Source: an uncultured candidate division WWE3 bacterium
GTDB taxonomy: Bacteria; Patescibacteriota; WWE3; UBA101185; UBA10185
Direction of reading: 5' to 3'
DNA: 64,000 nucleotides
NCBI GenBank assembly: GCA_963765125.1
Contig: CAVXUZ010000004.1
Span: 792-64,791, forward strand
The notes beneath the pieces are model-generated. The model was not told the DNA's origin. It did not search any database and was given only the letters and a program-made list of their open reading frames with translations. How positions within the stretch are numbered: the first letter of the stretch is position 1; every line of letters begins with the position of its first letter. Below, in pieces: positions 24,696 through 62,187 of this stretch. The translations under genes were made by a program, and so were the position numbers.

Positions 24696-25268
24696 ATGAA
24701 TAGGCAAAAATGGTTTAATTTTACTACGCGTGAACTTGTTGCAATGGCCATATTGATCGCAGTAGCCGGGGTTATTCAGGTCCTTTGGGCCCAAATCGTC
24801 TACAACCTTCAATGGTTAGGACCGTTTACTAATCTTTTTGGAAGTTTTGGTTTCAACATTGTGAGCTTTGCTGTACTATTTCTCATCAGAAAACCAGGTG
24901 CAGCAACAGTTGTAAAGGTATTAGCTGGTGTTATTGAACTCGCTATGGGTAGTCCAGTCGGCCCAGTTGTAATTTTCTACAATCTTGTAGAGGGTTTCGC
25001 TGCTGATCTGGCATTTGTATTCTTCAAAGGTGATTTTTCTTTATACATGATAATCACCGGATCGATCATAGCTTGGCTTCTAGCAGCTCCAGTTGATGCA
25101 TACCGCGATGCCGTACCAATGACAACAAGTGGTATTGTTGGATACTTTGGTCCTGGCGGAATGGGTAAAGTATGGATTTCACTTTGGGTCTATCTAACCC
25201 TACTTGCTCTTAAAAAGGCAGGTGTTAAACCAATCACAAAGGAAAGTACTGTAATAGTAAATACTTAA
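24696..25268 (+). CDS. ECF transporter substrate-specific (S) component
   Basis: 190-aa polytopic membrane protein directly upstream of ecfA/ecfT. Confidence 0.55.
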   Translation: MNRQKWFNFTTRELVAMAILIAVAGVIQVLWAQIVYNLQWLGPFTNLFGSFGFNIVSFAVLFLIRKPGAATVVKVLAGVIELAMGSPVGPVVIFYNLVEGFAADLAFVFFKGDFSLYMIITGSIIAWLLAAPVDAYRDAVPMTTSGIVGYFGPGGMGKVWISLWVYLTLLALKKAGVKPITKESTVIVNT

Positions 25269-25379
25269 TCAGTATTACAACTATTTTACTTTTTGAATCG
25301 ATAAATAGCCCGTCAAAAATCATATTTGCCGGGCTTTTATTTTTGACTATTTTATAATTCAAAAGAAACGGAGGACTAA

Positions 25380-26969
25380 ATGATTTCGGTTAAGAACTTT
25401 TCGTATTCTTACCCAAACAACCGTCCAGCTTTGAAGAACATAAATCTTTCTGTATCCTCCGGTGAATTTGTATTGATAGCAGGCCCAAATGGTGGCGGCA
25501 AATCAACACTTTTACAAGCAATCCTAGGTGTAGTACCGGAGTACTATGGTGGTGAGATAAGTGGAAGAATTACGTTCGAAGGCAAAGACGTTAAAGAATT
25601 TGGCATAGTAAAACTAGCAGGAAAAATTGGCATAGTTCTTCAAGACCCAGAAAGCCAGATAAGCAACTTGACTGTATGGGAAGAAGTAACTTTTGCGTTA
25701 GGCAATCTTCTTACGCCGCAGGAAGAGATAATACAACGCGGTAAGCAGTCGTTAGAAACAATGGATATACTTCCGCTACGTAACGCGTCGGTTGAAACTC
25801 TTTCAGGTGGGCAGCTACAAAGACTAGCAATTGCAACTCTAGTAGCTTTGCATCCCAGAATTATGATCTTAGATGAGCCGTTGGCAAGCCTAGATCCTCT
25901 TGGAGTAAAGTCTGTTATCGACGCTCTAAAAGTTCTTAAAAACTTTGTTGATGTAATAATAGTTGCGTCGCATTGGCTTGACCCTTTCTTAGATCTATCT
26001 ACGCGTTTAATAGTAGTAGATTCTGGAAGTATCGTTTTAGACATACCGTCAGCAACTATTGATAACCACCAAGAAGAGCTTAGTTTTCACAGCGTTGAAA
26101 TCCCACAGAGAATCTTGATAAAAAAGATTTTAAGCTCTCAAGGTATCAAATATTTTTCCAAAAATGGAAGTCTAATTCTCCCTAATGGAAAAACACTCAA
26201 GCCAGTTCAACACAATGCCAGTAGTAATGCTGATTTTGGGTTGGTGATGGATGGCGTAAGCTACTCATATAGTGGATGCCTGGAAACACTCAAGAATGTC
26301 ACTTTAAGTTTAAGAAAACATTCAAGAACTGCGATTGCAGGCCGTAACGGCGCGGGAAAAAGCACGTTGGCTAGACTCTTAGCGGGGTTGAGAAAACCAA
26401 AAAGTGGTAGGTTGATAATTAATTATCAAACCATATCGATGACTACTCAAAAACCAAGTTTAGGTTTTATTACAAACAAAGTGCTTGAGGAACTGAGATA
26501 TGGATTGAATCTCTCTGAAGCAGAAGCAATTAGAATTCTTGAAGAATTTAATCTTGCTCAATTTAAAGAGGTTTCACCATTTACACTTTCTGGGGGTGAA
26601 CAAAGACGTTTCTCTCTGGCTTTAGCTTTATCATCAAAACCAGATCAGATAATTCTCGATGAACCTACTGCTGGTATGGATACCAATCAAGTGAGGTTTA
26701 TGATAAGCACTATGGAAAAGTTCGATGGTGCATCAGTTTTTGTGACGCACGATCCAAGACTGGTAGGAACGTTCTTGAAAGAAATCGCAGTCATAGAAAA
26801 TGGCATGCTCTTTTTCAAAGGTGTTACATCAGATTTAGACTCGGAAACTTTTTCCCTCTTGGGTTACCAATTCACAAATGCAACGGTAAAGTTTGCTCTA
26901 CAGTATCTTCAAAGAGAGCTACCGATGCTACCATCGCAGATCGAGGTGATACATGAATCTAGCATATAA
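25380..26969 (+). CDS. ecfA: ECF transporter ATPase, fused tandem EcfA-EcfA'
   Basis: Two ABC cassettes (GPNGGGKST / LSGGQLQR and GRNGAGKST / LSGGEQRR). Confidence 0.8.
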   Translation: MISVKNFSYSYPNNRPALKNINLSVSSGEFVLIAGPNGGGKSTLLQAILGVVPEYYGGEISGRITFEGKDVKEFGIVKLAGKIGIVLQDPESQISNLTVWEEVTFALGNLLTPQEEIIQRGKQSLETMDILPLRNASVETLSGGQLQRLAIATLVALHPRIMILDEPLASLDPLGVKSVIDALKVLKNFVDVIIVASHWLDPFLDLSTRLIVVDSGSIVLDIPSATIDNHQEELSFHSVEIPQRILIKKILSSQGIKYFSKNGSLILPNGKTLKPVQHNASSNADFGLVMDGVSYSYSGCLETLKNVTLSLRKHSRTAIAGRNGAGKSTLARLLAGLRKPKSGRLIINYQTISMTTQKPSLGFITNKVLEELRYGLNLSEAEAIRILEEFNLAQFKEVSPFTLSGGEQRRFSLALALSSKPDQIILDEPTAGMDTNQVRFMISTMEKFDGASVFVTHDPRLVGTFLKEIAVIENGMLFFKGVTSDLDSETFSLLGYQFTNATVKFALQYLQRELPMLPSQIEVIHESSI

Positions 26970-27693
26970 TGCAAAGGCAACGGTGTTTCAGAAAATTGAT
27001 CCGATAACAAAGCTGGTTTGGACCTTTGTTGTAGCGTGGTGGCTATACGGATTGAGAGACATTTGGAGTGTTGTAGCAGTAAGTTTTGGGATTACATTAA
27101 TCTCATACGTCTGTTCAAAGTTTAACTTAACTAGTTTTCTAAAAGTCTCTGGGATAATTTTTCTTGGAGGATGGGGATTAATGGTTTATCAAGGTCTTTT
27201 TAGACCTGGGCCAGGGATACCCGTTGGGCCTTTTGTGCTGTCATACGAAGGAATGACTTTAGGTTTCTCCTTGGCACTACGCACGTTTGGTCTTGTTGCT
27301 GCAGGCTGGGCTTTTTCTATCAGCACAAGCCCGAAGGACATGGAACTTTCTATGGTAAAAATGCATGTACCCTACAAAATTGCGCGGGTTGCATATTTAT
27401 CACTAAGATTAATTCCTATCTTTAAAAGAGACATTCAAATGATTCAGGACATTCAAACTTTAAGAAAGGTGAAAAACGGTTTAGACAGATTTAAAAAATC
27501 TATCGTTGCTTTAATCGCAACCGAAGTCAGACAGGTTGATACCATTTCAATAGCATTAGAAACTAGAGGATTTGGTCTGTACGACAAAAGGTCTGAATTA
27601 ACAACTGTCACAATTTCAAAAAGTGGAATCGCACTAGTAACTATAACAATACTACTGATGATTCTCCACAACGTAGCATTAAAAATGTTATAA
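26953..27693 (+). CDS. ecfT: ECF transporter transmembrane (T) component
   Basis: Overlaps ecfA stop; CbiQ-like membrane protein. Confidence 0.7.
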   Translation: MNLAYNAKATVFQKIDPITKLVWTFVVAWWLYGLRDIWSVVAVSFGITLISYVCSKFNLTSFLKVSGIIFLGGWGLMVYQGLFRPGPGIPVGPFVLSYEGMTLGFSLALRTFGLVAAGWAFSISTSPKDMELSMVKMHVPYKIARVAYLSLRLIPIFKRDIQMIQDIQTLRKVKNGLDRFKKSIVALIATEVRQVDTISIALETRGFGLYDKRSELTTVTISKSGIALVTITILLMILHNVALKML

Positions 27694-38706: not shown

Positions 38707-39453
38707 TTGTACATTAGAATGAAAATATCCTGCCCACCTTATACCATGAGCGTTTTATCTAAACCTGAAATTCTAAAACATTTTAAAGCCGGTAATATTG
38801 TTATCGAACCGTTTAATAAAAGTAATATCGCAAACGCCAGCTATGATGTAAGACTTGGTAAATATTTTTACCGTCAAGACGAGCAAGCAAATTCAAAAAT
38901 ATTAAATCCATTTTGGGAAAAATCAGTCAGCAGAATGTATTCAGGCGTTCAAGAAGCTATTCCCGTTAAAGAAATTAGATCAGAGTTTAATCCTTTTTAT
39001 AATTTAAAACCAAATGATTTGGTGATTTTGGTGGGTCCGGGTGAATCTATACTTGCGCACACAATAGAGTTTATCGGTGGAAAAAATGGAGACGGCGTTT
39101 TACCTGCAGTGACTACTGAAATGCGTGCTAGGAGTTCTCTAGGAAGAATAGGAATTGCCGTTTGCAAATGCGCGGGTTGGGGTGATATTGGTTATATAAA
39201 CCGCTGGACGATGGAGATTACAAACTTCAGTACAGCTATTATTCCATTACCTGTAGGTATGCGAGTTGCACAAATAATTTTTCACGAAACCGTACCGGTC
39301 GAAGAGGATGATACTTACCAACAAAAAGGGAAATACCAAACGAGTAAAGAAATGGCTACTATCAAAAAAAACTGGAAACCTGAGGATATGCTTCCAAAAT
39401 TATATAAAGACAAGGATTTAGGTAAATTTTCTAAATTTTGGTGCCAGTCTTAG
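38707..39453 (+). CDS. dcd: dCTP deaminase (dUTPase superfamily)
   Basis: SYDVRLG motif and beta-rich dUTPase fold pattern; true start probably ATG ~38746. Confidence 0.65.
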   Translation: MYIRMKISCPPYTMSVLSKPEILKHFKAGNIVIEPFNKSNIANASYDVRLGKYFYRQDEQANSKILNPFWEKSVSRMYSGVQEAIPVKEIRSEFNPFYNLKPNDLVILVGPGESILAHTIEFIGGKNGDGVLPAVTTEMRARSSLGRIGIAVCKCAGWGDIGYINRWTMEITNFSTAIIPLPVGMRVAQIIFHETVPVEEDDTYQQKGKYQTSKEMATIKKNWKPEDMLPKLYKDKDLGKFSKFWCQS

Positions 39454-39646
39454 TCCACGCGGCTAGAGATTTTTCTGCTGTTTGGGAATCAATTTTATGC
39501 ATCGCTATACCCATTTGCACTTGAACATAATCACCAACCATAATACCCTCATCGCCTATCATTGCGTAGCGCTCCTCACCCGGGTACTCAATTAGTGCTT
39601 TTCGACCTTCAATTTTTTTGACTTTTCCTGGTATTGCTAGACACAT
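39431..39646 (-). CDS. hypC: [NiFe]-hydrogenase maturation chaperone HypC/HupF
   Basis: Canonical N-terminus MCLAIPGKV (Cys2 essential) and ~72 aa length; the longer upstream extension in the ORF track is unlikely. Confidence 0.7.
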   Translation of the reverse strand: MCLAIPGKVKKIEGRKALIEYPGEERYAMIGDEGIMVGDYVQVQMGIAMHKIDSQTAEKSLAAWTKTGTKI

Positions 39647-39662
39647 ATTTATATTATAATTT

Positions 39663-40181
39663 ATGAGCTCTATTATGTCAGATACAAACGCTCCAACAGA
39701 AAAAAAGAAACTCGTCATTGGATGGTACTCCTTTACATGCTGTGAGGACAGTACTATTTTATTCACCGAGTTATTAAACGATCACTACGACGAATGGAAA
39801 AAAGTAGTCGAATTTAGATATATACGTTCGCTAAAAACAAACAATGAAACACGCGATCTCGATGTGGCCTTTATAGAAGGCGCCATTTCATCAAAAAAAC
39901 AAGAGGACGAGGTAATAAATATAAGAGCAAACGCTAAATATGTTGTTGCGGTCGGCGCGTGTGCTTGCACTGGTATGCCTTCTGCGAGTCGAAACGCTTT
40001 TACACCAGAAAATATTACAGAACGAATTCAATGGTATTTAAGCCACTTTGATTACAGCGAAAAAGTAAGAAAACTAGACGAAGTTATAAAAGTTGACGAT
40101 TGGATCAACGGCTGCCCGATGGGTGTAGACGCTTTTTATGCAGCGCTTGATAAGTATTTAAAATTATTTGAAATAATCTAA
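39663..40181 (+). CDS. [NiFe]-hydrogenase small subunit, minimal NuoB/EchC-like (single proximal Fe-S cluster)
   Basis: FTCCEDS, GACACTG, GCPMG motifs resembling the NuoB-type CCxxE / GxCxxxG / GCPP cysteine ligands; 172 aa; immediately upstream of large subunit. Confidence 0.6.
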   Translation: MSSIMSDTNAPTEKKKLVIGWYSFTCCEDSTILFTELLNDHYDEWKKVVEFRYIRSLKTNNETRDLDVAFIEGAISSKKQEDEVINIRANAKYVVAVGACACTGMPSASRNAFTPENITERIQWYLSHFDYSEKVRKLDEVIKVDDWINGCPMGVDAFYAALDKYLKLFEII

Positions 40182-40182
40182 T

Positions 40183-41484
40183 ATGCATAGCGGAGAAATT
40201 ACAATTGATAACATTACAAAGATTGAGGGTTCTGCGGGACTTAAAGTTACTATAGAAAATGATAAAGTAACTGATCTCAAATTTATTATTCAAGATTATC
40301 GACGATTTTATACTGAGGCTGTCAAAGGTAAACCGTACATTGCAGCGCCATCGTTTCTCTCAAGAATTTGTGGCACCTGCTCAGTTGCACATTTATTTGC
40401 AGCGCTCGAAGCAGTAGAAAAATCTCAAGGTATTCAACTTAGCGAACAATCTAAAACATTACGTAGGCTTGCTTATGACGGTTTGATGATTCGCGACCAT
40501 GCACTACACTTATACTTTTTTGTATTACCAGACATTTTAGGAATAGATTCGATATTAGATATCCCAGACGAACACGATAACGAAGGTCACCAATTACTGC
40601 ACGACTCCTTTGATATAAAGCGCGTAGGTACAACAATAACTGACGTTATTATCGGCGCTGCAATACACGCTCCTTATCCAACAGTTGGAGGATTTTTAAA
40701 AACACCAGATGCGAGTAAATTTCCTGCATTGATTGAGAGTCTTAAAAAAATAAGGCCGATGGCAATCAGAGGAGTTGAGACATTTGCAAAATGGGATATT
40801 AAACTTATTAGAAATTCTGATTACTTAGCGATAAGAAACCCAGAAAGATACGACTACATTGAGGGTGAAGTGATTAACTCAAGTGGTAAACGCGTTCCTG
40901 AAGAAAAGTTTCATGACTTTTTGAAATCAGTTGTTATTCCATACTCTCAAGCTGAAGGATATGTATTTTCAGATGTTCACGATGATTACTTAGTAGGTTC
41001 TTTGGCACGCATAAACTTTAACAAAGATCAGTTGCATCCAGATACTAAACGGGATATTGCAAAATATTTAGATTTATTTCCTTCAAATAATGTTTTTCAC
41101 AATAATCTTGCACAAGCTATTGAGATATTGCAGAGTATCGATAACGCAATTGAGATACTAGAAAATATTAAACTTGTAGATGAAAAGCCAATCAGGCAGC
41201 CAGCACGCGCGGGTACTGGCGTAGGTGTTATAGAAGCTCCAAGAGGAATTTTGTACCACTACGCGCAGGTTAACGAAAAAGGGATGATCGTGGATTACGA
41301 TGTTATTGTACCTACAGCCCAAAATCAGATTAATATAGAAAACGATCTCAAAAAATATTTTAATGAGAATCTCGACAAAGACCAAAATACATTAAGACTT
41401 GAAGCAGAGAAGATTATTCGTGCCTACGATCCTTGTATGTCTTGCGCGACTAATTTCTTAAAAATAGAGTGGATTGTTAAATAA
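40183..41484 (+). CDS. [NiFe]-hydrogenase large (catalytic) subunit
   Basis: N-terminal RICGTCSVAH and C-terminal DPCMSCATN Ni-Fe ligand motifs, short C-terminal extension. Confidence 0.85.
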   Translation: MHSGEITIDNITKIEGSAGLKVTIENDKVTDLKFIIQDYRRFYTEAVKGKPYIAAPSFLSRICGTCSVAHLFAALEAVEKSQGIQLSEQSKTLRRLAYDGLMIRDHALHLYFFVLPDILGIDSILDIPDEHDNEGHQLLHDSFDIKRVGTTITDVIIGAAIHAPYPTVGGFLKTPDASKFPALIESLKKIRPMAIRGVETFAKWDIKLIRNSDYLAIRNPERYDYIEGEVINSSGKRVPEEKFHDFLKSVVIPYSQAEGYVFSDVHDDYLVGSLARINFNKDQLHPDTKRDIAKYLDLFPSNNVFHNNLAQAIEILQSIDNAIEILENIKLVDEKPIRQPARAGTGVGVIEAPRGILYHYAQVNEKGMIVDYDVIVPTAQNQINIENDLKKYFNENLDKDQNTLRLEAEKIIRAYDPCMSCATNFLKIEWIVK

Positions 41485-41846
41485 TCAATATCCTTATCTT
41501 TTGGTAATCCAATAATACTGACGTTTCCAATTTTTCCTAATTTCTTTAAATATTTTAATTGAAAACCTAAATCAAAATCGTGTACTGAGGTTCTTGGAGA
41601 ATTTACTAATTTATCTATACTCTTGTCGTCAAGTAAAACGGTTTTATCAATTCCTTCCACTGTGTCCATCAAAATAATATTTTCATTTTCGTTGAACGGA
41701 AGATCTTGGTTTGGTTTAACAATTTCAAAGTCTATATTGTTGTAGACACTGCTCTCATCACCAACCATAGTTTTTAAATGTTCGACTGCTCTAAATGAGT
41801 AATTATCTTGTGGGTGATCTTCGTTGCCAAAAAGGTAGACTTTCAT
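41424..41846 (-). CDS. Hydrogenase maturation endopeptidase (HycI/HyaD family)
   Basis: ILMDTVEG and SVHDFDLG metal-binding motifs; 3' end overlaps large-subunit 3' end by ~60 nt. Confidence 0.6.
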   Translation of the reverse strand: MKVYLFGNEDHPQDNYSFRAVEHLKTMVGDESSVYNNIDFEIVKPNQDLPFNENENIILMDTVEGIDKTVLLDDKSIDKLVNSPRTSVHDFDLGFQLKYLKKLGKIGNVSIIGLPKDKDIDYLTIHSIFKKLVAQDIQGS

Positions 41847-41874
41847 ACTATTTTATTTTAACCTGTATCAATCA

Positions 41875-42591
41875 ATGAAAGAAGATATTAAAGCTTTAAA
41901 ACTTGTTTCACGATTCTCACTCCCACCTAATTCACTTGGTTACTGCGGTAAAACAACTGCGCCAGAAAGGCTCAATTCGTGTGTTATCAAAGGTGATTGT
42001 GAAGGCGTTTCTAATGAATTGGAAAACTTTATTGTTTTAAACCCTTATCTAAAAACAATTAGCGAAATATCAGGTAAACCGAGATTTGGCTATGAAGTTA
42101 TAGAGTGTTACTGCATTGGAAATGAGCTAAGCGGTAAATTCGATTTATCAGGTTATGATTTACTACTTAAGAATTTTATCTCTCAGGGTGTTCCCGATTT
42201 TTTTGTTGATGAATTAAAATGTAATCCACCTAAGACTTTTATACCCACTCATCTTTTTCAAGTATTATATGTTGGGGTTGGAAAAGCGAGCGGGTCAGTA
42301 CTTTACAATATGGATACGATTAACAACTGTATGGTTAGATGGGGAGAAGTTAAAAATATAAGTAACGATAAAATTACTGTGGATTTAAATATGCTTGAAG
42401 GAACCCCTGAAGATAAATTATTTAAATTAGTAAAAAAAGAAGAAACATTTTCATTTAACAAATTGTTTGTCCCAAAATTAAAAGTTGGCAGTATTGTGGC
42501 AGTACATTGGCAGCAGGTTATTAAAATACTTACAAAGCAAGAAGTTAAAAATATTGAGTATTGGACAAAGAAAGTCTTAAATAGTTTCTAA
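41875..42591 (+). CDS. Hypothetical Cys-containing protein
   Basis: ORF; GYCGK...NSCVIKGDCEG. Confidence 0.4.
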   Translation: MKEDIKALKLVSRFSLPPNSLGYCGKTTAPERLNSCVIKGDCEGVSNELENFIVLNPYLKTISEISGKPRFGYEVIECYCIGNELSGKFDLSGYDLLLKNFISQGVPDFFVDELKCNPPKTFIPTHLFQVLYVGVGKASGSVLYNMDTINNCMVRWGEVKNISNDKITVDLNMLEGTPEDKLFKLVKKEETFSFNKLFVPKLKVGSIVAVHWQQVIKILTKQEVKNIEYWTKKVLNSF

Positions 42592-43491
42592 AGATTTTAC
42601 CTGATTTCCCTTTGCAGAAAACCAAAACAACATAAGTCCCACCACAGATAATAATATTTGTGGTGCAAGCTCTGCATTCCAGGCGCGAGTAATAAAAATT
42701 GCTGAAAAAGCATTTGTTATAAGCGTTGAAAATGCTAAAACTGAGGCAACGGTAATAGCAGGACTAATTTTTAAGGCTCTGTACCATGTATAAACATACG
42801 CGAGCAAAGTCATAGCGGTCGCTAATACCCAGATAATTTGGTTGCCATTGATAGCAACTACTTTTTGGAGAGCGTTAGGAATTGTTAAAAGTGAAGCACC
42901 AATTAGTAACAAGGAACCAACGCCCATTCTTGCGAAAGTAAGAATATCTGCGTCAACGTTTTTAAGAACTTTTTTAGCAATTATATTTTCCACCGCCCAA
43001 AGTATTGTCGCAGCTAAAATCATAACTTCTCCTGTTGAGAATTTAAATCCTGTGAATCCCCCGATAAATAAATTACTTCCAAAAAGTGCGAGAAGTCCAA
43101 CAATTTGAAGTTTAGTCATTTTCTCTTTTAAAAATGGAAGCGCTAGTAATGCAACCCAAATAATTAATGTTTTATGAATTAAAGCTGCGTTTATAGCTGA
43201 AGCAGATGATAGCCCAGTGAAAAATAAATAAAATGGCAGTGCACCTCCTACAAGTCCTACAAGTAGTAATCCACGTAGATTACGTTTTTCTAATTTCATG
43301 ATCTTTGCAATTTTTCCGGTGCTAAGTAGAACAGCTAATATCACCAAACCAACAATTGTATTTTTTACTGTAGTGAATAAAAGTGGAGGAGTTACCGCGC
43401 CGACAGCAAATTTGTTTATAAATATCGACACGCCAGATATTATCGCGGTCAACAAAGCTATATAAATACCTTTCATTTCTCTATTGGGCAT
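42577..43491 (-). CDS. EamA/DMT-family transporter
   Basis: 10-TM duplicated EamA pattern. Confidence 0.65.
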   Translation of the reverse strand: MPNREMKGIYIALLTAIISGVSIFINKFAVGAVTPPLLFTTVKNTIVGLVILAVLLSTGKIAKIMKLEKRNLRGLLLVGLVGGALPFYLFFTGLSSASAINAALIHKTLIIWVALLALPFLKEKMTKLQIVGLLALFGSNLFIGGFTGFKFSTGEVMILAATILWAVENIIAKKVLKNVDADILTFARMGVGSLLLIGASLLTIPNALQKVVAINGNQIIWVLATAMTLLAYVYTWYRALKISPAITVASVLAFSTLITNAFSAIFITRAWNAELAPQILLSVVGLMLFWFSAKGNQVKSLETI

Positions 43492-43513
43492 ATTTTTATT
43501 GTTCAGAAACTAC

Positions 43514-43768
43514 TTAATTTGGCCAAACCTGTTCGCCTGTTTCAGAATTGGTGATGATAATCGCTTTTGTAGGGCATGACTGCGCCGCTAAAAGCAAGTT
43601 ATCCTCTGTATCTTGGCTTGTTTCTAAAATGACTGCTTTTTTCTCAGCATCTAATTCAAACGTATCTGGAGAAAAAGCAATACATGAAGCAGCGCCAATA
43701 CACAGATCGCGAACGACTTGAACTTTATATTTTCCTATTTGGACTATTTTGTCTTGTGAGTTATCCAT
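43514..43768 (-). CDS. Ferredoxin (single/7Fe-type, Pyrococcus-like)
   Basis: CIGAASCIAFSP ... AAQSCPTKAI cysteine pattern, 84 aa. Confidence 0.7.
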   Translation of the reverse strand: MDNSQDKIVQIGKYKVQVVRDLCIGAASCIAFSPDTFELDAEKKAVILETSQDTEDNLLLAAQSCPTKAIIITNSETGEQVWPN

Positions 43769-43823
43769 TGGTCTATGTTATTAGATTTTAGCTAAATGTA
43801 CAACTACTCTTTTTGGAATGAAA

Positions 43824-44681
43824 TTACATGTACTTCTTAAAGATGTCGGTAAGATCTTTTCTGATTGGATTTGATGCAACCAGTGGATATTGAGAGAGCT
43901 GTGATAATTGTGATTCGTAAGAAGGTTTATCTTCTTCGTAAAGTATTCCCAACGGAACACTTTTTTCACCAAACTCCTGAGATTTCTTAAAAGCAGTTTC
44001 TTTGTTGGTCTTGTCGTAAGTAGAATCTAGATAGTATGTGTTATTGTGATAAAACTCATGACTCAGTGTTTTGTTGAAAGTTACACAAGGCTGCAAAATA
44101 TCTAAAACTGAAATTCCTTTATGCTTGTTTGCTGCAACTATCAAATCTTTAAGTTGAGCCATATCTCCTGTAAATCCACGCGCAACAAATGTAGCACCTG
44201 CTGAAATTGCTAAGGTCAGTGGGTTTAACGGCCAATCGGGATTACCGTCGGGTGTAGATTTTGATTTAAACCCGTGGGGTGAGGCAGGAGACGTTTGCCC
44301 TGTTGTTAAAGCATAAAGTCCGTTGTCATGAAGTAAAATAGTAATATCGTGGTTTCTTCTACACGCATGAATAAAGTGGTTACCACCTTCTCCTAAACAA
44401 TCACCATCCCCAGTAAAAACAAAAACATTGAGCGCGTGATTTGCCATTTTAAGACCAGAAGCAACCGGTATTGCTCGACCGTGCAAACCCTCAACCGCTG
44501 TAATTTTTGTGAAGTTAACAATATGGCCATGGCAACCGATACCTGCTACATATGATGTATTTGTATTATTCCAACCTTCTTGAACTGCTGCCATTTTAAA
44601 CGAAGACCAAAGTGCTAAGTTTCCACAGCCTGGGCACCAATTTGGATTACACGGAGTTTGAAGTTGCGCCATTGTTGTCAT
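43824..44681 (-). CDS. 2-oxoacid:ferredoxin oxidoreductase beta (TPP-binding) subunit
   Basis: CPGCGN, GDGD TPP motif. Confidence 0.85.
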   Translation of the reverse strand: MTTMAQLQTPCNPNWCPGCGNLALWSSFKMAAVQEGWNNTNTSYVAGIGCHGHIVNFTKITAVEGLHGRAIPVASGLKMANHALNVFVFTGDGDCLGEGGNHFIHACRRNHDITILLHDNGLYALTTGQTSPASPHGFKSKSTPDGNPDWPLNPLTLAISAGATFVARGFTGDMAQLKDLIVAANKHKGISVLDILQPCVTFNKTLSHEFYHNNTYYLDSTYDKTNKETAFKKSQEFGEKSVPLGILYEEDKPSYESQLSQLSQYPLVASNPIRKDLTDIFKKYM

Positions 44682-46429
44682 TTCTCTTCTCCCTTCAACA
44701 CTGAATTTATTTTTTCTATAATTTCTTCTACAAAAAATGGGCGACCGTCGTACTTTAAGAAATTATCTTTTATTTCAAAGCCAGTCTTTTCTCTAATAAT
44801 TCCCGCCATATGCCCTGTGTAATTAGCTTCGATATTTATGACATGTTTTGTTTTGCTTAATACTTCGAAAATTCTTTTGGCAGGAAATGGATTTGCCCAT
44901 GTAAGATGCAAATAGTTTACGTTTTCAAATTCATTTATGGCTTGAAGAATGCTTCCCTTGTTGCTACCCCAAGAAACTATTGTTATATCAGCGTTTTCTG
45001 GGCCATACAAAACTGGTTGATCCATATCTTCCCTCTCGCAAGTAATAAGTTTTTGCATTCGCTTTTTCATTTGCTCATTACGATTGTCTATTTCTTCGCT
45101 CGAATAACCTTTTTCGTCGTGCTCGTCTGAATTTGCAATAAAGAAATTTCCTACACCGGGAACAGTACGAGTAGAAATTCCGTCTTCTGATAAATTGTAG
45201 CGTTTAAATTCAGGGTCGAGGTCTAAAGAAAGTTTTCCTCTGTTCACTACAAAATTAGAATTATCAAATACTTCAACGGTTTTATCGTGTTCACAAAGAT
45301 TTTTGTCAATTAGTACAACAACTGGAGTTTGATATTTTTCTGCAAGATTAAATGCTTTTCTCGTAAGGTCAAAAACTTCTTCTATATCTCCTGGTGTTAG
45401 CACAATTCTCGGAAAATCTCCTTGATGTGCATGTAGAACAAATCTCAAATCACCTTGTTCGCTCCAAGTGGGAAGACCGGTAGCTGGTGCACCTCGCTGA
45501 CCTTCAACAATAACTACACCAACTTCGGCAATTCCTGCTAGACCATAAGCCTCAGACATTAATGCGAAACCTCCACCTGAGGTGGAAGTCATTGATCTGG
45601 CGCCTGCAAACGATGCCCCAATAGCCATATTTATCGCGGAAATCTCATCTTCTGGCTGTTTATAAACAAATCCATATTTTTGCTGGTAACTCGTTAAAAA
45701 GTGCAAAATATTAGAAATTGGTGACATTGGATAAATTGCAATAAACTGAACCCCGCCCGCGATTGCACCCATTCCCGCTGCCTCGTTTCCATTTACTACC
45801 ATAAGTGGTTTTCCATTTGGGTAACCTTGCACAGAATTTAGAATGTCTACAACCTTACTATCGTAGTTTTCTTTTGCATATTTATAACCAAGTTCTGCCG
45901 CTTTTAAATCGGCGTTGATAATTTCTTCTGATTTACCTGCGTACTCTTCTCTTACAAACGCTTTTAATATTTCTATATTTCCACCGAGCATTCCCGTGAT
46001 AGCCCCTAGTGCAACACTATTTATCAACAATTCGTCCCCACCTGATTCTTTTGCAAAAGCAGACAAATTTACAGGGTAAAGATTAATTCCCGCGGGAACT
46101 TTTGATACGTCTATCTTTTTATCGCCGTCATAAATTATTCCTGCGCCATCAGTCAAACTATCTAGATGAAAATCAATTCCGTCTTGATTAAGCGCAACTA
46201 GAAGATCTGTTTTATTACTTGGACCTTCAACTTTTTCTTTTGAAATATTAATCTGCATCACATTGTGTCCACCTCTAATAATTGAAGGATATTCGATATA
46301 GTTAAAAATGTAACACCCGGATCTGGCGGCAAATCGAGCAAAAAGGATCCCTGATGACTTAATACCCTGTCCAGCCATACCGGCTATTTTTACAGAATAT
46401 ATTTTTTGTTTTGTTAATGTTTTTTTCAT
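44678..46429 (-). CDS. 2-oxoacid:ferredoxin oxidoreductase alpha subunit (gamma-alpha fused)
   Basis: N-terminal gamma-type domain (GMAGQGIKSSG) + alpha pyrimidine-binding domain; overlaps beta start. Confidence 0.85.
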   Translation of the reverse strand: MKKTLTKQKIYSVKIAGMAGQGIKSSGILFARFAARSGCYIFNYIEYPSIIRGGHNVMQINISKEKVEGPSNKTDLLVALNQDGIDFHLDSLTDGAGIIYDGDKKIDVSKVPAGINLYPVNLSAFAKESGGDELLINSVALGAITGMLGGNIEILKAFVREEYAGKSEEIINADLKAAELGYKYAKENYDSKVVDILNSVQGYPNGKPLMVVNGNEAAGMGAIAGGVQFIAIYPMSPISNILHFLTSYQQKYGFVYKQPEDEISAINMAIGASFAGARSMTSTSGGGFALMSEAYGLAGIAEVGVVIVEGQRGAPATGLPTWSEQGDLRFVLHAHQGDFPRIVLTPGDIEEVFDLTRKAFNLAEKYQTPVVVLIDKNLCEHDKTVEVFDNSNFVVNRGKLSLDLDPEFKRYNLSEDGISTRTVPGVGNFFIANSDEHDEKGYSSEEIDNRNEQMKKRMQKLITCEREDMDQPVLYGPENADITIVSWGSNKGSILQAINEFENVNYLHLTWANPFPAKRIFEVLSKTKHVINIEANYTGHMAGIIREKTGFEIKDNFLKYDGRPFFVEEIIEKINSVLKGEEK

Positions 46430-49290
46430 TAAACGAATCTCTCAGAGTAAATTCTAGACTCCTGACAACCAGTTTGTTTTAGTAAATCAGTCGCACCTTT
46501 AATCATAGCAGGATGCCCACACAAATACGCCGAACAATTCATTGTATCTTTAAAATTTTGTTTAACTAAGTCGGTATTAAATCCTCTTGGGCCTGTCCAC
46601 GCAGGACTTGGCTCATATAAAACGTATTCGTAATTAAATTGTGGATATTTTTGCTTCAAATTGTCAAAAGTATCTTTCCAAAATATTTCTTCTTCACGTG
46701 TTAAACCATAATATAAAGTGTGTGCGGCTGTTGAATGTTCTTCTTCAAGTGACGTTTCGATCATACATCTTAATGCACTAATTCCAGAACCTGTTGCTAA
46801 AAATATTTTGTGGTCTGAACCATCGTCATTATGTAATACAAATACTCCAAATGGTCCTAAGAATTGCATTTTCTCTCCAACTTTTATTTTGTCAAAAAAT
46901 TGTGAACCAGGACCTCCAGGTCTTGTATCAACTAAGAGCGCGTATTTATTTGGACCGAGTTTTGATGCAATCGAGTAAGCTCTAATTGCTGTATCAGAAA
47001 CTTTTACGCTGACGTACTGACCAGCTTTAAAATCAAAAGGCTCGGCTGTCTCAAATTCAAAATAGTTGAATTTTGTTGCTGGCACAGTGTGAACGGTGCA
47101 TGTAGCTTCCTTAAGTTTTGGCCCCACTGCTGGTTTTTTACTTTCTTTGATGATGATTTTTCCATCAACTGCCCAAACGTTATCTTTTGTGACTATTACA
47201 GGATTAATTTCTATATCTGTAGCTTCTGGAATAAGTTCACCCATCTTTCCAACCCTAACGATTAAATCGTAAAGTTTTTCTAATGCGTACTGCGCAACGC
47301 CATCTTTATCTTTCAATAGTGAATAGATTTTTGAACCTTCAACAATCTTTTTTGCGTCGGTTAATTCTACAGGTAATAAATGAATATTCTTATCACCAAT
47401 CAAATCTGCATAATGACCACCTGCTCCAAAAAGAAGCAACGGACCAAATGTCGGGTCGGTTTTTATTCCAATAATTATCTCAACGCCACTCATTACATCT
47501 TTTTGTATTTGAAACGAAATTGTTTTTTTAATTTCGGTACTTAATTTTTCAGCGTTTAATAAAAGATCCATCCAGGCTTTTTCTAAACCTACGTTATCAA
47601 TAATATTTAAGATAACTCCACCGACTTTGTCTTTGTGTATAAGCCCTGGCGCAGACAACTTTAGAACAACTGGCCAACCATTTTCTGCAGCAAACGTTTT
47701 TGCTTCGTCGATACTCACTACATTTTTTGTCGGCGGTGTGTTTATTCCTACAACTTTAAATATTGAGTCGACATCGACGTTACCTACTGTTGTACTCCCT
47801 TCAGTAACTGTTTTTTGAATTATTGTTCTGATAACTCCAGTTTCGGGTGTAATTTCAAAAGGTGTACCAGCAAGTTCTTCTGGGTTGTTGATCTGACGCT
47901 TTTTAAACTGCCACATCGCGGAAAGTGCCTTAATAGCTCTTTCAGGAAATTCAAAAGACGGTATTTTATATTTATTGAGAGCCTTGGTACCTTGCTCGAC
48001 GGCTCTTCCACCGATAAATGAACAAAGTATTGGTTTTGCATATTTTTTAGATAACTCTCCTATTACTTGCGCAGTTTTTTCTGCTTCGGTCATTAGTTGA
48101 GGGGTAAGTAATACAATCAAAGAATCAACTTCGCTGTTTTGTAAAACTATTTCTATTGCTTCGGCAAACCTGTCTGAAAGTGCGTCACCCAAAACGTCTA
48201 CCGGATTAATAATGCTTGCCGATCTTGGTAACACATTTTGTAATTTAGTTTTTGTTGCGTCATCAAATTGAGCGAACTCAAGACCACTAGTTACAACCGA
48301 GTCCGCGCTAATAACTGCCGGCCCACCTGCATTAGAGATTACTGCAACTTTTGGTCCTAATGGAGAATTTTCCCATGCAAACGCACGTGAATAATCAAAA
48401 AATTCTTCGAGTGTGTAACATCTAATCGCACCTGATTGCTTTAAAACTTCGTCGAGTACTGCGTCTTCGCCTGCGATTGCCCCTGTGTGTGATTGCATTG
48501 CTTTTGCAGCCGCTGTGGTTTTTCCTGGCTTAATAATTAATACGGGATCTTTTTTTGATATTTCTGAAATGTAACGTAAAAGTTCTGGGCCATTTGCTAT
48601 CGACTCTAAATATAAACCGATCGGCCTCACATTTGATAACCCCTCAGGAAGATGTGTAACCAGCTGGTCTTGGCTCTGTCTTAAGAAATTAAAAAGAATA
48701 TCGTTTTCAGTGATGCCTGCTTTATTCCCTAAAGTTACAAATTCACTAACCCCAAGACCTGTTGTGTTGCAATAATCAACCAAACTCGCTGCAATTGCAC
48801 CAGATTGTGTTATAAATCTCAAATTTCCAGATTCTTGTACTTTTTCAGCAAACGTGGCGTTCAAAGAGATTTGTGTATTAACAAAACCTAAACAGTTAGG
48901 ACCTAGCAAATTAATTGAAAACTTCTTTGCTATATCGATTAGATTTTTTTCTAGCTTTTCTCCTTCTGCACCGATTTCTTTAAACCCCGCGGACAACACC
49001 ACAACATTTTTTACTCCCTTTTCGCCGAGTTTAGTTACCGCATCACCTACAACAGTTGAAGGAATGCATACTATGGCGAGTTCTGGAACTTCTGGTATCG
49101 CAGATACGTCAACAAACGCAGTAAATCCTTGAATATCTGTAGCGTTTGGGTTAATAGGAAATATTTTTCCACTATAACCAGATTCTTTTATGTTTTTTAC
49201 AACTATTGAACCTAGTTTTTCTGGTGATCTTGATGCTCCGATAATCGCTATCGATTTGGGATAGAAAAAATTCGTCAACTCTGTGGGCAT
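46429..49290 (-). CDS. ADP-forming acetyl-CoA synthetase (fused alpha/beta, NDP-forming acyl-CoA ligase) with C-terminal FNR-like FAD/NAD(P)-binding reductase domain (~last 230 aa, nt ~46429-47130)
   Basis: CoA-binding and ligase-CoA domains, then an ATP-grasp beta domain. The C-terminus carries RAYSIAS (RxYS), GGPGS, GPFG, ATGSGISAL (GxGxxP-like) and YLCGHPAM motifs of the ferredoxin-NADP+ reductase family. Confidence 0.8.
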   Translation of the reverse strand: MPTELTNFFYPKSIAIIGASRSPEKLGSIVVKNIKESGYSGKIFPINPNATDIQGFTAFVDVSAIPEVPELAIVCIPSTVVGDAVTKLGEKGVKNVVVLSAGFKEIGAEGEKLEKNLIDIAKKFSINLLGPNCLGFVNTQISLNATFAEKVQESGNLRFITQSGAIAASLVDYCNTTGLGVSEFVTLGNKAGITENDILFNFLRQSQDQLVTHLPEGLSNVRPIGLYLESIANGPELLRYISEISKKDPVLIIKPGKTTAAAKAMQSHTGAIAGEDAVLDEVLKQSGAIRCYTLEEFFDYSRAFAWENSPLGPKVAVISNAGGPAVISADSVVTSGLEFAQFDDATKTKLQNVLPRSASIINPVDVLGDALSDRFAEAIEIVLQNSEVDSLIVLLTPQLMTEAEKTAQVIGELSKKYAKPILCSFIGGRAVEQGTKALNKYKIPSFEFPERAIKALSAMWQFKKRQINNPEELAGTPFEITPETGVIRTIIQKTVTEGSTTVGNVDVDSIFKVVGINTPPTKNVVSIDEAKTFAAENGWPVVLKLSAPGLIHKDKVGGVILNIIDNVGLEKAWMDLLLNAEKLSTEIKKTISFQIQKDVMSGVEIIIGIKTDPTFGPLLLFGAGGHYADLIGDKNIHLLPVELTDAKKIVEGSKIYSLLKDKDGVAQYALEKLYDLIVRVGKMGELIPEATDIEINPVIVTKDNVWAVDGKIIIKESKKPAVGPKLKEATCTVHTVPATKFNYFEFETAEPFDFKAGQYVSVKVSDTAIRAYSIASKLGPNKYALLVDTRPGGPGSQFFDKIKVGEKMQFLGPFGVFVLHNDDGSDHKIFLATGSGISALRCMIETSLEEEHSTAAHTLYYGLTREEEIFWKDTFDNLKQKYPQFNYEYVLYEPSPAWTGPRGFNTDLVKQNFKDTMNCSAYLCGHPAMIKGATDLLKQTGCQESRIYSERFV

Positions 49291-49360: not shown

Positions 49361-50293
49361 GTGAAGAAACTAATTAGTTTTATAGTTCTTATAGCCCTGG
49401 TAGCAGTTATTTATCTTAATTTTTCTAACATAAAAGCTTACTACAATAGATGGGTAGTATTTTCTTTTTGTGACAACCCAATTACATATAGGGTTGGTGA
49501 AATTGACCCCAAATTTAATCTCAACAATGACGAGCTTAAAAAATACATTGATGAAGGAGCAGACGTTTGGAATACAATGCTAGGTAAAAAACTGTTTATT
49601 TACGATTCCAATTCAGAACTCGAAATAAGTCTTGTTTATGACGAAAGGCAAGAGACGATGAAAAAAGTTAGTGATGAGAGAACACAGGTCGAAAAACAAA
49701 AAGCTACATATGATAGAGAACTTGCAGATTTTGAAAATGAAAAGCAAACGGTGCAAGCTTCCCTAAATAAATTAAATGATGAAATTCAGTACTGGAATTC
49801 AAAAGGTGGCGCGCCTGAAGATGTCTATGATGACTTAATCAACAAGCAAAAAATAATTCAAAAGGACATCGATAGAATTAATCAAGAAACAGAAAGAATA
49901 AATTCATTAGTAGATAGATTAAATAACGAGATAGAAAACCTTAATGATAAAGTGAGCAAATTCAATAATATTTTAACTACAAAACCGGAGCAGGGGCTTT
50001 TTATTGGTGGTGCAAAAAGAATTGAAATATACATATATGATGATAAAAATAGTTTTGTTCACACAATTGCGCATGAGCTCGGTCACGCGCTAGGTCTAGA
50101 CCACACAGACGCGGATCTAGCAATAATGAACCCAACCTCCTCGCCAGATTCAAAAGTAACCGAGGCAGATAAAGAACTGCTGGCAGCGCTCTGTTCCGAA
50201 CAAGATAGAATGCAACTATTTGTAAATGACACCAAAATGATTATCCAAAGACTCTTTTCTGAATTGAAAAATGTGATACCATTGAAAACATGA
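49361..50293 (+). CDS. Secreted zinc metalloprotease (matrixin/M10-like) with coiled-coil region
   Basis: HELGHALGLDHTDADLAIM (HExxHxxGxxH + Met-turn), N-terminal TM. Confidence 0.65.
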   Translation: MKKLISFIVLIALVAVIYLNFSNIKAYYNRWVVFSFCDNPITYRVGEIDPKFNLNNDELKKYIDEGADVWNTMLGKKLFIYDSNSELEISLVYDERQETMKKVSDERTQVEKQKATYDRELADFENEKQTVQASLNKLNDEIQYWNSKGGAPEDVYDDLINKQKIIQKDIDRINQETERINSLVDRLNNEIENLNDKVSKFNNILTTKPEQGLFIGGAKRIEIYIYDDKNSFVHTIAHELGHALGLDHTDADLAIMNPTSSPDSKVTEADKELLAALCSEQDRMQLFVNDTKMIIQRLFSELKNVIPLKT

Positions 50294-50720: not shown

Positions 50721-52268
50721 ATGGAAATAAACAAAATATTGCCATTTATCGCGATTTTCTTAGTTTTAGCCTTAATTACTGTAATTGTACTTTTCTCACC
50801 AAGGACTAAGGGCGAGAAAATAGTCGAAAACATCATCAACACAGCAAAAAACAACATTTCTGAAAAAATAAGAAAAAGTTCAGTTGCAGGTCAATTTTAT
50901 ACAGACGACCCACAAAAACTGTCTTTAGAGCTAGAAAACTATATTAATTCCGCCAGTAAAATACAAACGCAAGGCAAGTTAAGAATACTTGTTTCACCGC
51001 ACGCAGGAACACAATACTCTGGAAAAACCGCGGGGGCTGCGTTTAAGCAAATTGATCCTAAAAATTATAAAAGGGTGATTATTCTTGGAGTAAGCCACGA
51101 GAATGTTATTAATAAAGCTGCTGTAATTTCAAAAGGATACTGGGATACCCCTCTTGGTAAATTACATATTGACGAAGAAGCCGCTAAAAAAATAGTTAAC
51201 GGTCATAATATTATCGAGAATGATACTGCACATAACAACGAGCACTCAATTGAATTAATTGGAATATTTGTTAAATACTTGTTTGGTGATGTAAAAATAG
51301 TACCTATTCTTCTCGGTCAAACTGATGATACATTATTAAATTCTTTAGCGTACACTATTGCAAATAATTTTGACGATGAAACATTACTCATCGTAAGTAC
51401 TGATCTTTCGCACTATCCAAATTGGGACGATGCGGTGAAATCAGATACTAATGTTATTAATTCTCTACTTACAGGAAATATAAATACTTTTGAAAATGCA
51501 GTTTTAGAAAATAAATCTGCAAATTATCCCAATCACAGTACATCAGCCTGTGGCTACGAACCACTAAGAGTCGCACTTAAAATATCAGATATTTTAAAGT
51601 TTAAAGAAATTAAAAAAATTGATTACACAAATTCAGGTGATATTACTGGGGACAAATCTCGTGTTGTGGGATACGGCGCTGTAGGCTTCTATAGCAACGA
51701 TATTACGCCCGTCACCTTAAGCCAAAATGCCAAACAAGAACTTCTAAGACTTGCACGCGCTACGATTGAAAGTTATGTAAAAAGTAACACTATTTTAAAT
51801 TTTGCACCGATAAATGATGAGCTCTTTTTACCGCTCGGCGCATTTGTAACATTAACAGAAAATGATCAGCTTCGTGGCTGCATCGGAGAATTTGAACCTA
51901 ATTACCCTCTATACGAAGTCATTCAAAGCGTGTCGATTTCTTCGGCTACCAAAGATCCTAGATTTAGACCAGTCACTACAGCAGAATTAGATAAAATTAA
52001 TATTGAGATCTCCACGATGACTCCTCAAGTACAGATATATGATTGGAAAGATATTAAACTAGGAGTTCATGGTGTAAGAATACAAAACGGTAATAAATCT
52101 GGAACTTTTCTTCCACAGGTAGCAACAGATAACAAATGGGATTTAGAAACGTTTTTACAAAATCTTTGTACTGAAAAAGCTAATCTTGATGAGGACTGTT
52201 ATAAAAATCCAGAAACAAAGATATACGTATTTGAAACTGACATTTTTGAAGAAACTCACGAAAACTAG
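50721..52268 (+). CDS. Fused AmmeMemoRadiSam system protein B (MEMO1-like) + protein A (AMMECR1 domain)
   Basis: SPHAGTQYSG...GVSH Memo-like N-terminal half; LGAFVTLTE...LRGCIGEFEP AMMECR1 signature in C-terminal half. Confidence 0.7.
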   Translation: MEINKILPFIAIFLVLALITVIVLFSPRTKGEKIVENIINTAKNNISEKIRKSSVAGQFYTDDPQKLSLELENYINSASKIQTQGKLRILVSPHAGTQYSGKTAGAAFKQIDPKNYKRVIILGVSHENVINKAAVISKGYWDTPLGKLHIDEEAAKKIVNGHNIIENDTAHNNEHSIELIGIFVKYLFGDVKIVPILLGQTDDTLLNSLAYTIANNFDDETLLIVSTDLSHYPNWDDAVKSDTNVINSLLTGNINTFENAVLENKSANYPNHSTSACGYEPLRVALKISDILKFKEIKKIDYTNSGDITGDKSRVVGYGAVGFYSNDITPVTLSQNAKQELLRLARATIESYVKSNTILNFAPINDELFLPLGAFVTLTENDQLRGCIGEFEPNYPLYEVIQSVSISSATKDPRFRPVTTAELDKINIEISTMTPQVQIYDWKDIKLGVHGVRIQNGNKSGTFLPQVATDNKWDLETFLQNLCTEKANLDEDCYKNPETKIYVFETDIFEETHEN

Positions 52269-62165: not shown

Positions 62166-62187
62166 AGCTTTATCTTATCATTGCAGT

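Follow-up and report, generated by a model that had tools for sequence, protein, structure and literature searches.

How does a [NiFe] hydrogenase with only two subunits, and with a single hyp maturation gene beside it, obtain its active site and exchange electrons with the cell? The question is raised by a 64,000-nucleotide (nt) stretch of DNA from an uncultured candidate division WWE3 bacterium (GenBank assembly GCA_963765125.1, contig CAVXUZ010000004.1, positions 792 to 64,791 of the forward strand); the whole stretch is referred to as the window, and positions are counted within it. An original prediction, made from the letters of this DNA alone, had picked out five open reading frames (ORFs) between 39431 and 42591, namely hypC, the small and the large subunit of a [NiFe] hydrogenase, a maturation protease, and a Cys-rich protein, and all five were confirmed in the same places. 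Judged by its sequence, the enzyme is a cytosolic heterodimeric [NiFe] hydrogenase that is derived from group 3b and keeps all four Ni-Fe cysteines, and it is a member of the published clade hyd2. On balance, we regard it as somewhat more likely than not that this hydrogenase works within a ferredoxin-linked fermentative gene cluster and is matured by HypC, the protease, and the Cys-rich protein, which belongs to family DUF6390.

A heterodimeric hydrogenase of the hyd2 clade

The large subunit (40183-41484, plus strand; 433 amino acids (aa); PF00374, NiFeSe_Hases) is related to group 3b. Its profile scores fell from HydA (255 bits) and ShyA (227 bits) to FrhA (135 bits) and VhuA (134 bits), which stand for groups 3a and 3c, its best NCBIfam match was sulfhyd_HydA (1.5e-75), and its best solved structure was the alpha subunit of Pyrococcus furiosus soluble hydrogenase I (SHI; 9nez_D, 2.5e-66). 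The nearest references are those of group 3b and all scores lie below the equivalog cut-offs; therefore, the protein is a divergent relative of 3b. The heterotetramer of that group is not matched, as genes for a beta (AsrA-like Fe-S) or gamma (FAD/NAD plus 2Fe-2S) subunit were found neither in the window nor in approximately 60 hyd2 loci.

Canonical N- and C-terminal Ni-Fe cysteine motifs had been proposed for this subunit, and this holds for the cysteines themselves. All four are present, in RICGTCSVAH (C63 and C66), which varies slightly among complete relatives at non-Cys positions only, and in DPCMSCATN (C418 and C421), which is followed by the nine-residue extension FLKIEWIVK. However, the second motif does not have the canonical DPCxxCxx(H/R) ending: Asn replaces His/Arg in every hyd2 member, with both Cys kept. 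The canonical His is kept in a sister clade that takes in Peregrinibacteria, Parcubacteria, and DPANN archaea and has large subunits that are 45-54% identical. An inactive or pseudo-hydrogenase was considered and rejected on the presence of the Ni-Fe cysteines, the proton-relay Glu (KIEGS), and the PRG Arg, and on relatives that are 73-82% identical.

The small subunit (39663-40181, plus strand; PF01058, Oxidored_q6, 1e-20) is 172 aa long, or 168 aa if translation starts at 39675, and consists of the proximal-cluster domain only. Measured against a full-length delta subunit of approximately 260 aa, it covers only positions 2-154 of the 261-position HydD profile; in the closest solved structure, P. 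furiosus SHI delta, it aligns to residues 4-150 (1e-11). Because the alignment ends at position 154 of 261, the protein lacks approximately 110 C-terminal residues of delta. The C-terminal part of group-3 small subunits carries the medial and distal clusters. A frameshift as the cause of the short length was rejected, since more than 70 relatives are of equal length, each ending just before the large-subunit ATG. Profile and structure searches thus bore out the proposal of a minimal [NiFe] hydrogenase made of two subunits, the small one having a single Fe-S domain.

By contrast, a proposed affinity of the small subunit with NuoB/EchC-type subunits was not supported. The best profiles are those of group 3, with 56 bits over 154 residues for HydD and 41 bits for FrhG as opposed to approximately 30 bits over 50 residues for NuoB; on these scores the protein is of the group-3 type and its resemblance to NuoB is superficial. 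The motif taken for CCxxE is actually T-C26-C27-E-D29-S, and its second Cys is not conserved: position 27 in 72 distinct small subunits is Cys (55), Ser (15), Gly (2), or Asp (1). C26, C100, and C151 are invariant across this set and C102 is variable. Positions 29 and 30 are Asp-Ser/Asn in 68 sequences and Gly-Cys, as in P. furiosus, in four, and four of the 72 are without any candidate fourth Cys. The most economical reading would be that one proximal cluster has C26-x-x-D29, C100, and C151 as its ligands; in place of ligation by three Cys and Asp29, the small subunit may hold a [3Fe-4S] cluster.

A clade with these features has been described by Jaffe et al. 2020 (BMC Biol, PMC7304191). There, hyd2 is a clade of the candidate phyla radiation (CPR) that is related to group 3b and sits on a long branch, its small subunit is consistently truncated (mean 164 aa), hypC lies nearby, proximal beta or gamma subunits are absent, and its function is given as 'uncertain'; the supplements contain no hyp data. 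The window locus shares the truncated small subunit, the nearby hypC, and the lack of proximal beta and gamma genes, and is a member of hyd2 by match to this published description. Nothing sets the locus apart within the clade. The core observation has already been published (PMC7304191) and is not new as an observation, and the enzyme is uncharacterized.

Relatives of the large subunit number in the thousands. The top 120 listed are all approximately 433 aa long and 73-82% identical, and the named sources among them are Patescibacteria (Uhrbacteria, Daviesbacteria, WWE3, and Dojkabacteria). In addition, contigs of high GC content (58-66%) labeled Rubrobacteraceae (L039, L042, L052, L055, L058, L059, and L063) carry a hyd2-type small subunit, large subunit, and protease with DPCMSCATN; therefore, the clade is not confined to the CPR. 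The hyd2-type genes of L059 and L063 look frameshifted.

Gene neighborhood and candidate electron partners

Three samples of loci were compared with the window, in which Pfam was run on every ORF of at least 90 aa. The first consisted of loci L001-L005, the second of approximately 60 hyd2 loci of GTDB genomes, and the third, an independent one, of 80 Joint Genome Institute (JGI) metagenome loci anchored on DUF6390, for which counts refer to loci with enough flank. The conserved gene order is hypC (minus strand), small and large subunits (plus), protease (minus), DUF6390 (plus), an EamA-family transporter (minus), ferredoxin (minus), the beta and alpha subunits of a pyruvate/2-oxoacid:ferredoxin oxidoreductase (POR; minus), and a fusion of ADP-forming acetyl-CoA synthetase (ACD) with an FNR-like domain (minus). 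In the window this cluster spans 39431-49290, with the hydrogenase genes at its left end. The same order was found on a 1.10-Mb Daviesbacteria contig, a 1.11-Mb Patescibacteria contig, Uhrbacteria contigs, and in the approximately 60 hyd2 loci of GTDB genomes. Among the DUF6390-anchored loci, the large subunit and protease were present in 54/54, hypC and the small subunit in 29/29, EamA in 41/47, ferredoxin in 30/32, and POR in 28/32. The available part of PMC7304191 makes no mention of the invariant DUF6390/EamA/protease set, the ferredoxin-POR-ACD-FNR synteny, the CxxD cluster motif, the His-to-Asn change, or an occurrence in Rubrobacteraceae metagenome-assembled genomes (MAGs).

The ferredoxin gene (43514-43768, minus strand; Fer4_13, 9e-11) lies 1.9 kb downstream and encodes a monocluster protein of 84 aa. 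Its motif CxxAxxC...CP, with three Cys and of the [3Fe-4S] type, recurs in all 36 distinct hyd2-linked ferredoxins, each with Ala in place of the second ligand. The loci of the sister clade that encode the maturases HydE and HydG (see below) have a ferredoxin of the same family with CxxCxxC...CP and no POR nearby. Beyond the ferredoxin gene follow those for the POR beta subunit (43824-44681, minus strand; TPP_enzyme_C and PFO_beta_C) and alpha/gamma subunit (44678-46429, minus strand; POR, POR_N, and PFOR_II), and for the 953-aa ACD-FNR fusion (46429-49290, minus strand). The latter combines CoA_binding_2, Succ_CoA_lig, Ligase_CoA_2, and ATP-grasp_5 with a C-terminal FNR-like FAD/NAD(P) domain (FAD_binding_6 and NAD_binding_1), and has no Fe-S domain. 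The fusion is kept in most relatives, and in L002 the FNR module is a stand-alone protein of 235 aa beside POR. Thus, the earlier claim that no electron-transfer subunits are adjacent stands for classical beta and gamma subunits, but not in general, since relatives share a ferredoxin, POR, and an FNR-like domain as neighbors.

This gene content can be read as a fermentation module. Pyruvate would be converted by POR to acetyl-CoA with reduction of ferredoxin, and acetyl-CoA to acetate by ACD with formation of ATP. The small subunit, having no medial and distal clusters, would exchange electrons directly with the co-encoded three-Cys ferredoxin, which would also be the acceptor of the adjacent POR. 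Protons would serve as electron sink, the hydrogenase re-oxidizing POR-reduced ferredoxin and evolving H2, and the FNR domain would connect the ferredoxin pool with NAD(P)H. A ferredoxin-coupled, H2-evolving role is proposed because only the proximal cluster is present, beta and gamma subunits are absent, the ferredoxin is the one electron carrier kept in both clades, and POR and ACD are neighbors.

The FNR module also allows a different reading, in which the enzyme is NAD(P)-linked like group 3b and the ACD-fused domain is a detached diaphorase, fed by the small subunit directly or via the ferredoxin. The module is conserved in the cluster, its FAD_binding_6 and NAD_binding_1 domains are the pair found in the 3b gamma subunit, and PMC7304191 reports gamma-like NAD-binding matches near some hyd2 genes. 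However, the DHODB Fe-S domain that true gamma subunits have is missing from the module, it is encoded on the opposite strand 5-7 kb away with no beta subunit, and the equally minimal enzymes of the sister clade have a ferredoxin but no FNR nearby. We consider an NAD(P)-linked enzyme unlikely. Less likely still is H2 uptake, in which H2 from the host or community would reduce ferredoxin, e.g., so that POR could make pyruvate reductively or FNR could form NAD(P)H. Group 3 hydrogenases are reversible, and the cluster holds reversible enzymes only. Nevertheless, unless bifurcation or coupling is involved, reduction of ferredoxin by H2 is thermodynamically unfavorable; the presence of an ATP-forming ACD in the cluster is in keeping with an oxidative, fermentative direction; and CPR bacteria are generally inferred to be fermenters.

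Accessory genes and the question of maturation

The hypC gene (39431-39646, minus strand) encodes a [NiFe] maturation chaperone of 71 aa, within the 70-90 aa typical of the family, that starts with MCLAIPG and thus has the N-terminal Met-Cys. It scored above the cut-offs of both PF01455 (4e-17; 62.5 versus 28.5 bits) and TIGR00074 (49.2 versus 48 bits). The 3' end of hypC is overlapped convergently by 23 nt by the 3' end of a dCTP deaminase-like gene (38707-39453, plus strand), the second convergent overlap of the cluster.

At its other end, hypC diverges from the small-subunit gene across 16 nt between the two ATG codons (39647-39662), or 28 nt if the second in-frame ATG of the small subunit (39675) is the true start. 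The tight divergence noted at the outset was confirmed as a property of the clade, with a spacer of 15-46 nt in most hyd2 loci. In the window the spacer contains the palindromic TATATTATAAT, which yields -10-like hexamers on both strands. The best sigma70-like match of the region, CTGACA-17-TATAAT on the hypC strand, fits 11/12 positions and stops 7 nt short of the hypC ATG; its -35 hexamer falls within the coding sequence of the small subunit. In most hyd2 loci, TATTATA (TATAAT on the hypC strand) recurs at 5-15 nt ahead of the hypC start codon. These elements may act as promoters. If so, hypC mRNA is probably leaderless or near-leaderless, transcribed from the -10 box within the 16-nt spacer, a reading that would refine the original idea of promoters embedded in coding sequence.

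The protease gene (41424-41846, minus strand; 140 aa) overlaps the 3' end of the large-subunit gene by 61 nt. By itself the protein matches PF01750 only at 1e-3 (19.4 bits, below the gathering score of 23), and a PDB profile search and an hhalign comparison with E. coli HycI gave no match. Its family is more telling: 20/22 members match PF01750, the best at 1.4e-6, and 22 diverse members share invariant G7, N8, D14, D61, and H89. Judged by their place in the motifs GN..D, xxDxV, and SxHD, the last three probably correspond to the HybD metal triad Glu16/Asp62/His93. A single-sequence AlphaFold2 model (pLDDT 73) had as its best PDB matches by Foldseek E. coli HycI (2kml, TM-score 0.52), the top one, and 3pu6, at TM-scores of 0.52-0.57. 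These family matches, the invariant residues, and the fold make the proposed identity as a HycI-type (HybD/HycI) maturation endopeptidase, a divergent one that overlaps convergently, probable.

The last 20 codons of the protease (41424-41484) include its tail KKLVAQDIQGS, which is the antisense reading of DPCMSCATNFLK, the large-subunit active-site motif, and replacing the Asn424 codon with the His codon CAT at 41452-41454 would put a TGA stop into the reading frame of the protease. The identical 61-nt overlap occurs in L001, L002, L003, and the high-GC L052; relatives with a relocated protease gene lack the KKLVAQDIQGS tail, and in the sister clade the two genes are free of overlap. Overlap and Asn are thus both particular to hyd2, and they may be coupled.

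The Cys-rich protein (41875-42591, plus strand; 238 aa) belongs to DUF6390 (PF19927; 6e-25, 88.6 bits against a cut-off of 25, residues 9-236), and next to it lies the gene for the EamA/DMT-family transporter (42577-43491, minus strand; PF00892, 7e-27). C24, C36, C42, C152, H126, and H211 are invariant in an alignment of 40 DUF6390 members. The AlphaFold2 model (pLDDT 91) has an all-helical N-domain (residues 5-152), then a small beta-barrel and a helix. By hhalign, residues 156-232 match residues 6-66 of HypC (92% probability, E 5.6e-7), and C152 aligns with the position of HypC Cys2, an essential residue. A PDB profile search returned only a sub-threshold HypC match (E 1.5), nothing in the PDB matched the N-domain, and literature searches on DUF6390 brought up nothing relevant. 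The earlier suggestion that the Cys-rich protein is an accessory factor has become plausible through its HypC-like C-terminal half.

The DUF6390 family comprises 839 clusters at 50% identity (E up to 1e-3). Among the best 150 clusters listed, most members have 220-280 aa, shorter ones appear to be fragments, and none has an extra domain. The hydrogenase is upstream of DUF6390 in 54/54 anchored loci, and distant members again adjoin hypC, with an MFS transporter adjacent in L087 and a DPANN archaeon as the source of L088. In L089-91 the family occurs in a complete 3b operon of four subunits, arranged as beta-gamma-hypC-EamA-DUF6390-small(258 aa)-large-...-hypA, with EamA lying between hypC and DUF6390. 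The occurrence of DUF6390 is thus independent of how electron transfer is organized, and the protein keeps company with hypC and a transporter; this favors a role in maturation, or another accessory role, over that of a redox subunit. DPANN archaea also have hydrogenase-adjacent proteins of 165-175 aa (L073:11753-12247, L075:2676-3185, L084:3571-4080, and L067:2463-2987) with an N-terminal helical three-Cys part and an internal HypC-like domain ('LDCKVFPGKIEKI…GDFVTLHYNYVVEKIS'). Their arrangement of three Cys plus one Cys is that of DUF6390, of whose architecture they are a shortened version.

The same data bear on the proposal that DUF6390 is a structural or electron-transfer subunit, in which an Fe-S cluster on the four invariant Cys would replace the medial/distal domain. 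Besides these cysteines, its complete co-occurrence with the hydrogenase in the anchored loci and its place directly upstream of the small subunit in L089-91 would fit such a subunit. In L089-91, however, it accompanies a full-length 258-aa small subunit together with beta and gamma; it is absent from the equally minimal loci of the HydE/HydG type; and its C-terminal half is a homologue of the chaperone HypC in which C152 takes the place of Cys2. We judge a subunit role improbable. Its narrower form, DUF6390 as a substitute for the lost Fe-S domains, was rejected on its presence with the full four-subunit enzyme of L089-91.

No HypA, HypB, HypD, HypE, or HypF was found in the 64 kb by Pfam or by phmmer, which compared the E. 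coli proteins with every ORF of 40 aa or more in the six frames, in agreement with the claim that hypC is the only hyp gene of the window. Homologues of HypD, HypE, and HypF were likewise absent within 8-10 kb in approximately 165 related loci, and literature searches on hyp genes in Patescibacteria returned nothing relevant. [NiFe] hydrogenase maturation is regarded as universally HypA-F-dependent (e.g., PMC12134894).

In the sister clade, four loci (L060, L066, L068, and L174) lack DUF6390 and EamA and have, upstream of the small- and large-subunit genes, a gene for a HypC-HydE fusion followed by one for HydG. The fusion (418-440 aa) scored 57 bits for its HypC part (cut-off 48) and 276 bits for its HydE part (TIGR03956, cut-off 255), and HydG is bona fide (TIGR03955, 572 bits, cut-off 312; CX2CX22C motif). 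The pair was located at L060:1049-3669, L068:6796-11311, and L174:6678-11489 in Peregrinibacteria-like CPR bacteria and at L093:8685-11380 and L175:6692-9380 in DPANN archaea. The annotated parts of these loci contain neither an [FeFe] hydrogenase nor an annotated HydF. Among the top 120 of 8000 HydG homologues above threshold, none matched a hyd2 contig in length, and no paper describing the HypC-HydE fusion was found. EamA, like DUF6390, is absent from the HydE/HydG-type loci as a group. As the two sets {HypC-HydE, HydG} and {DUF6390, EamA} are mutually exclusive, their distribution suggests that they may be alternative solutions for the same maturation step.

In the window clade, maturation would use HypC, the divergent C-terminal endopeptidase, and DUF6390. 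The latter would offer a HypC-like domain whose Cys2 equivalent (C152) is capped by a three-Cys helical domain, and would probably act with EamA. Taken further, both clades might build the NiFe(CN)2CO site without HypD, HypE, and HypF, the sister clade through HydG, as the source of CO/CN ligands, with HypC-HydE handing over the iron unit to the large subunit, and the window clade through a DUF6390 scaffold and EamA. We regard this joint reading as possible but rather doubtful. Import of a precursor or of the preformed unit by episymbiotic cells is one possibility within it.

The more conventional explanation is that HypA, HypB, HypD, HypE, and HypF are encoded elsewhere in the genome, DUF6390 being an auxiliary HypC paralogue that stabilizes the large subunit in the manner of HupF/HoxL, and EamA being unrelated. 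In fact, the contig is at least 294 kb long and the window takes in 64 kb of it, so that most of the genome lies outside the window; hypA stands beside the DUF6390-containing 3b operon of L089-91; the Rubrobacteraceae hyd2-type genes have no DUF6390 nearby; and HypC paralogues with extra domains, such as HupF and HoxL, are known. On the other side, hypD, hypE, and hypF normally cluster with hypC, yet they never lie within 8-10 kb in the approximately 165 loci, in essentially all of which hypC is adjacent. Moreover, in bacteria and DPANN archaea alike DUF6390 is accompanied by EamA (or, in L087, by the MFS transporter), and DUF6390/EamA and HypC-HydE/HydG are mutually exclusive. We give canonical maturation a little less than an even chance.

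A number of points weigh against the combined picture of a ferredoxin-linked, fermentative hydrogenase matured by HypC, the protease, and DUF6390. Its catalytic direction and redox partner are read from gene neighborhood, the hyd2 clade is known from genes alone, and Asp29 is a putative ligand on account of its conservation. The potential of a three-Cys, [3Fe-4S]-type ferredoxin may be too high for proton reduction. Promoter-like sites in the hypC/small-subunit region number 16, compared with 17.3 expected from shuffled sequence, and are thus not enriched. The Rubrobacteraceae hyd2-type loci have no hypC, DUF6390, EamA, ferredoxin, or POR nearby; because these MAGs carry the small subunit, large subunit, and protease without them, none of them is an obligatory neighbor. 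A further hyd2 locus, L021, is locally without DUF6390 and EamA. Together, the Rubrobacteraceae MAGs and L021 weaken the case for alternative maturation sets, which was built from loci and not from whole genomes.

That hypC, the protease, and DUF6390 are always present and hypD, hypE, and hypF never adjacent provides a testable lead to an alternative Fe(CN)2CO route, and HydG and HypC-HydE in a [NiFe] operon suggest cross-talk between the [NiFe] and [FeFe] maturation systems. If Hyp genes are present elsewhere in the genomes, the locus is no more than a further member of the published hyd2 clade. With approximately 600 residues, two subunits, and one Fe-S cluster, the enzyme would rank among the smallest [NiFe] hydrogenases, an attractive minimal catalyst, and it would clarify the disposal of reductant in CPR fermentation.

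Other genes of the window

Several genes outside the cluster were noted. An ECF-type transporter at 24696-27693 (plus strand) consists of an ABC_cobalt S-component-like protein, a fused double ATPase (529 aa), and CbiQ/EcfT. As a Ni importer for the hydrogenase, this system (24.7-27.7 kb) was considered and rejected, since ABC_cobalt and CbiQ are generic ECF components and it has no link to the cluster. A matrixin-like metallopeptidase (49361-50293) is encoded upstream of a 515-aa fusion of a Memo-like with an AMMECR1 domain (50721-52268, plus strand); the same peptidase occurs inside the hydrogenase cluster of L001. The 223-aa protein at 62146-62817 (plus strand) was matched to the NpmA family of 16S rRNA (adenine1408-N1) methyltransferases (PF24675, 3.3e-54), a family known for aminoglycoside resistance.

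Comparison with known systems

P. furiosus SHI (sulfhydrogenase, group 3b; 9nez and 9e15) is the closest solved relative of both subunits, with a full-length match for alpha (2.5e-66) and a match at 1e-11 for delta. The two enzymes agree in the L1 motif, and each has a short C-terminal extension. In contrast to the window enzyme, which has no beta and gamma subunits, SHI is an alpha-delta-beta-gamma tetramer with a 261-aa delta and an FAD/NADP site. Two substitutions also separate them, CxxC in SHI being CxxD, and DPCxxCxxH being DPCxxCxxN, in the window enzyme.

In size and cluster content, the small subunit resembles those of HoxY/HoxH (group 3d) and HydABCSL (5xf9 and 7t2r), which have approximately 180 aa and a single proximal cluster. 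However, HoxY/HoxH and HydABCSL dock onto a NuoE/F/G-like diaphorase from the same operon, whereas the window encodes no such subunits, and the matches to them are weaker than those to 3b.

For the accessory protein, the nearest parallels are HupF/HoxL and the HypC-HypD scaffold. Like these, DUF6390 has a HypC-type domain in which a conserved Cys occupies the position of Cys2, and it is encoded by a gene tied to hydrogenase. Unlike HupF/HoxL, its Cys is internal (C152), following a 150-aa helical domain with three more invariant Cys, and no HypD motif is present. Finally, the radical-SAM [FeFe] maturases HydG and HydE are absent from the window, but they are encoded in the [NiFe] operon of the sister clade, where HydE is fused to HypC.

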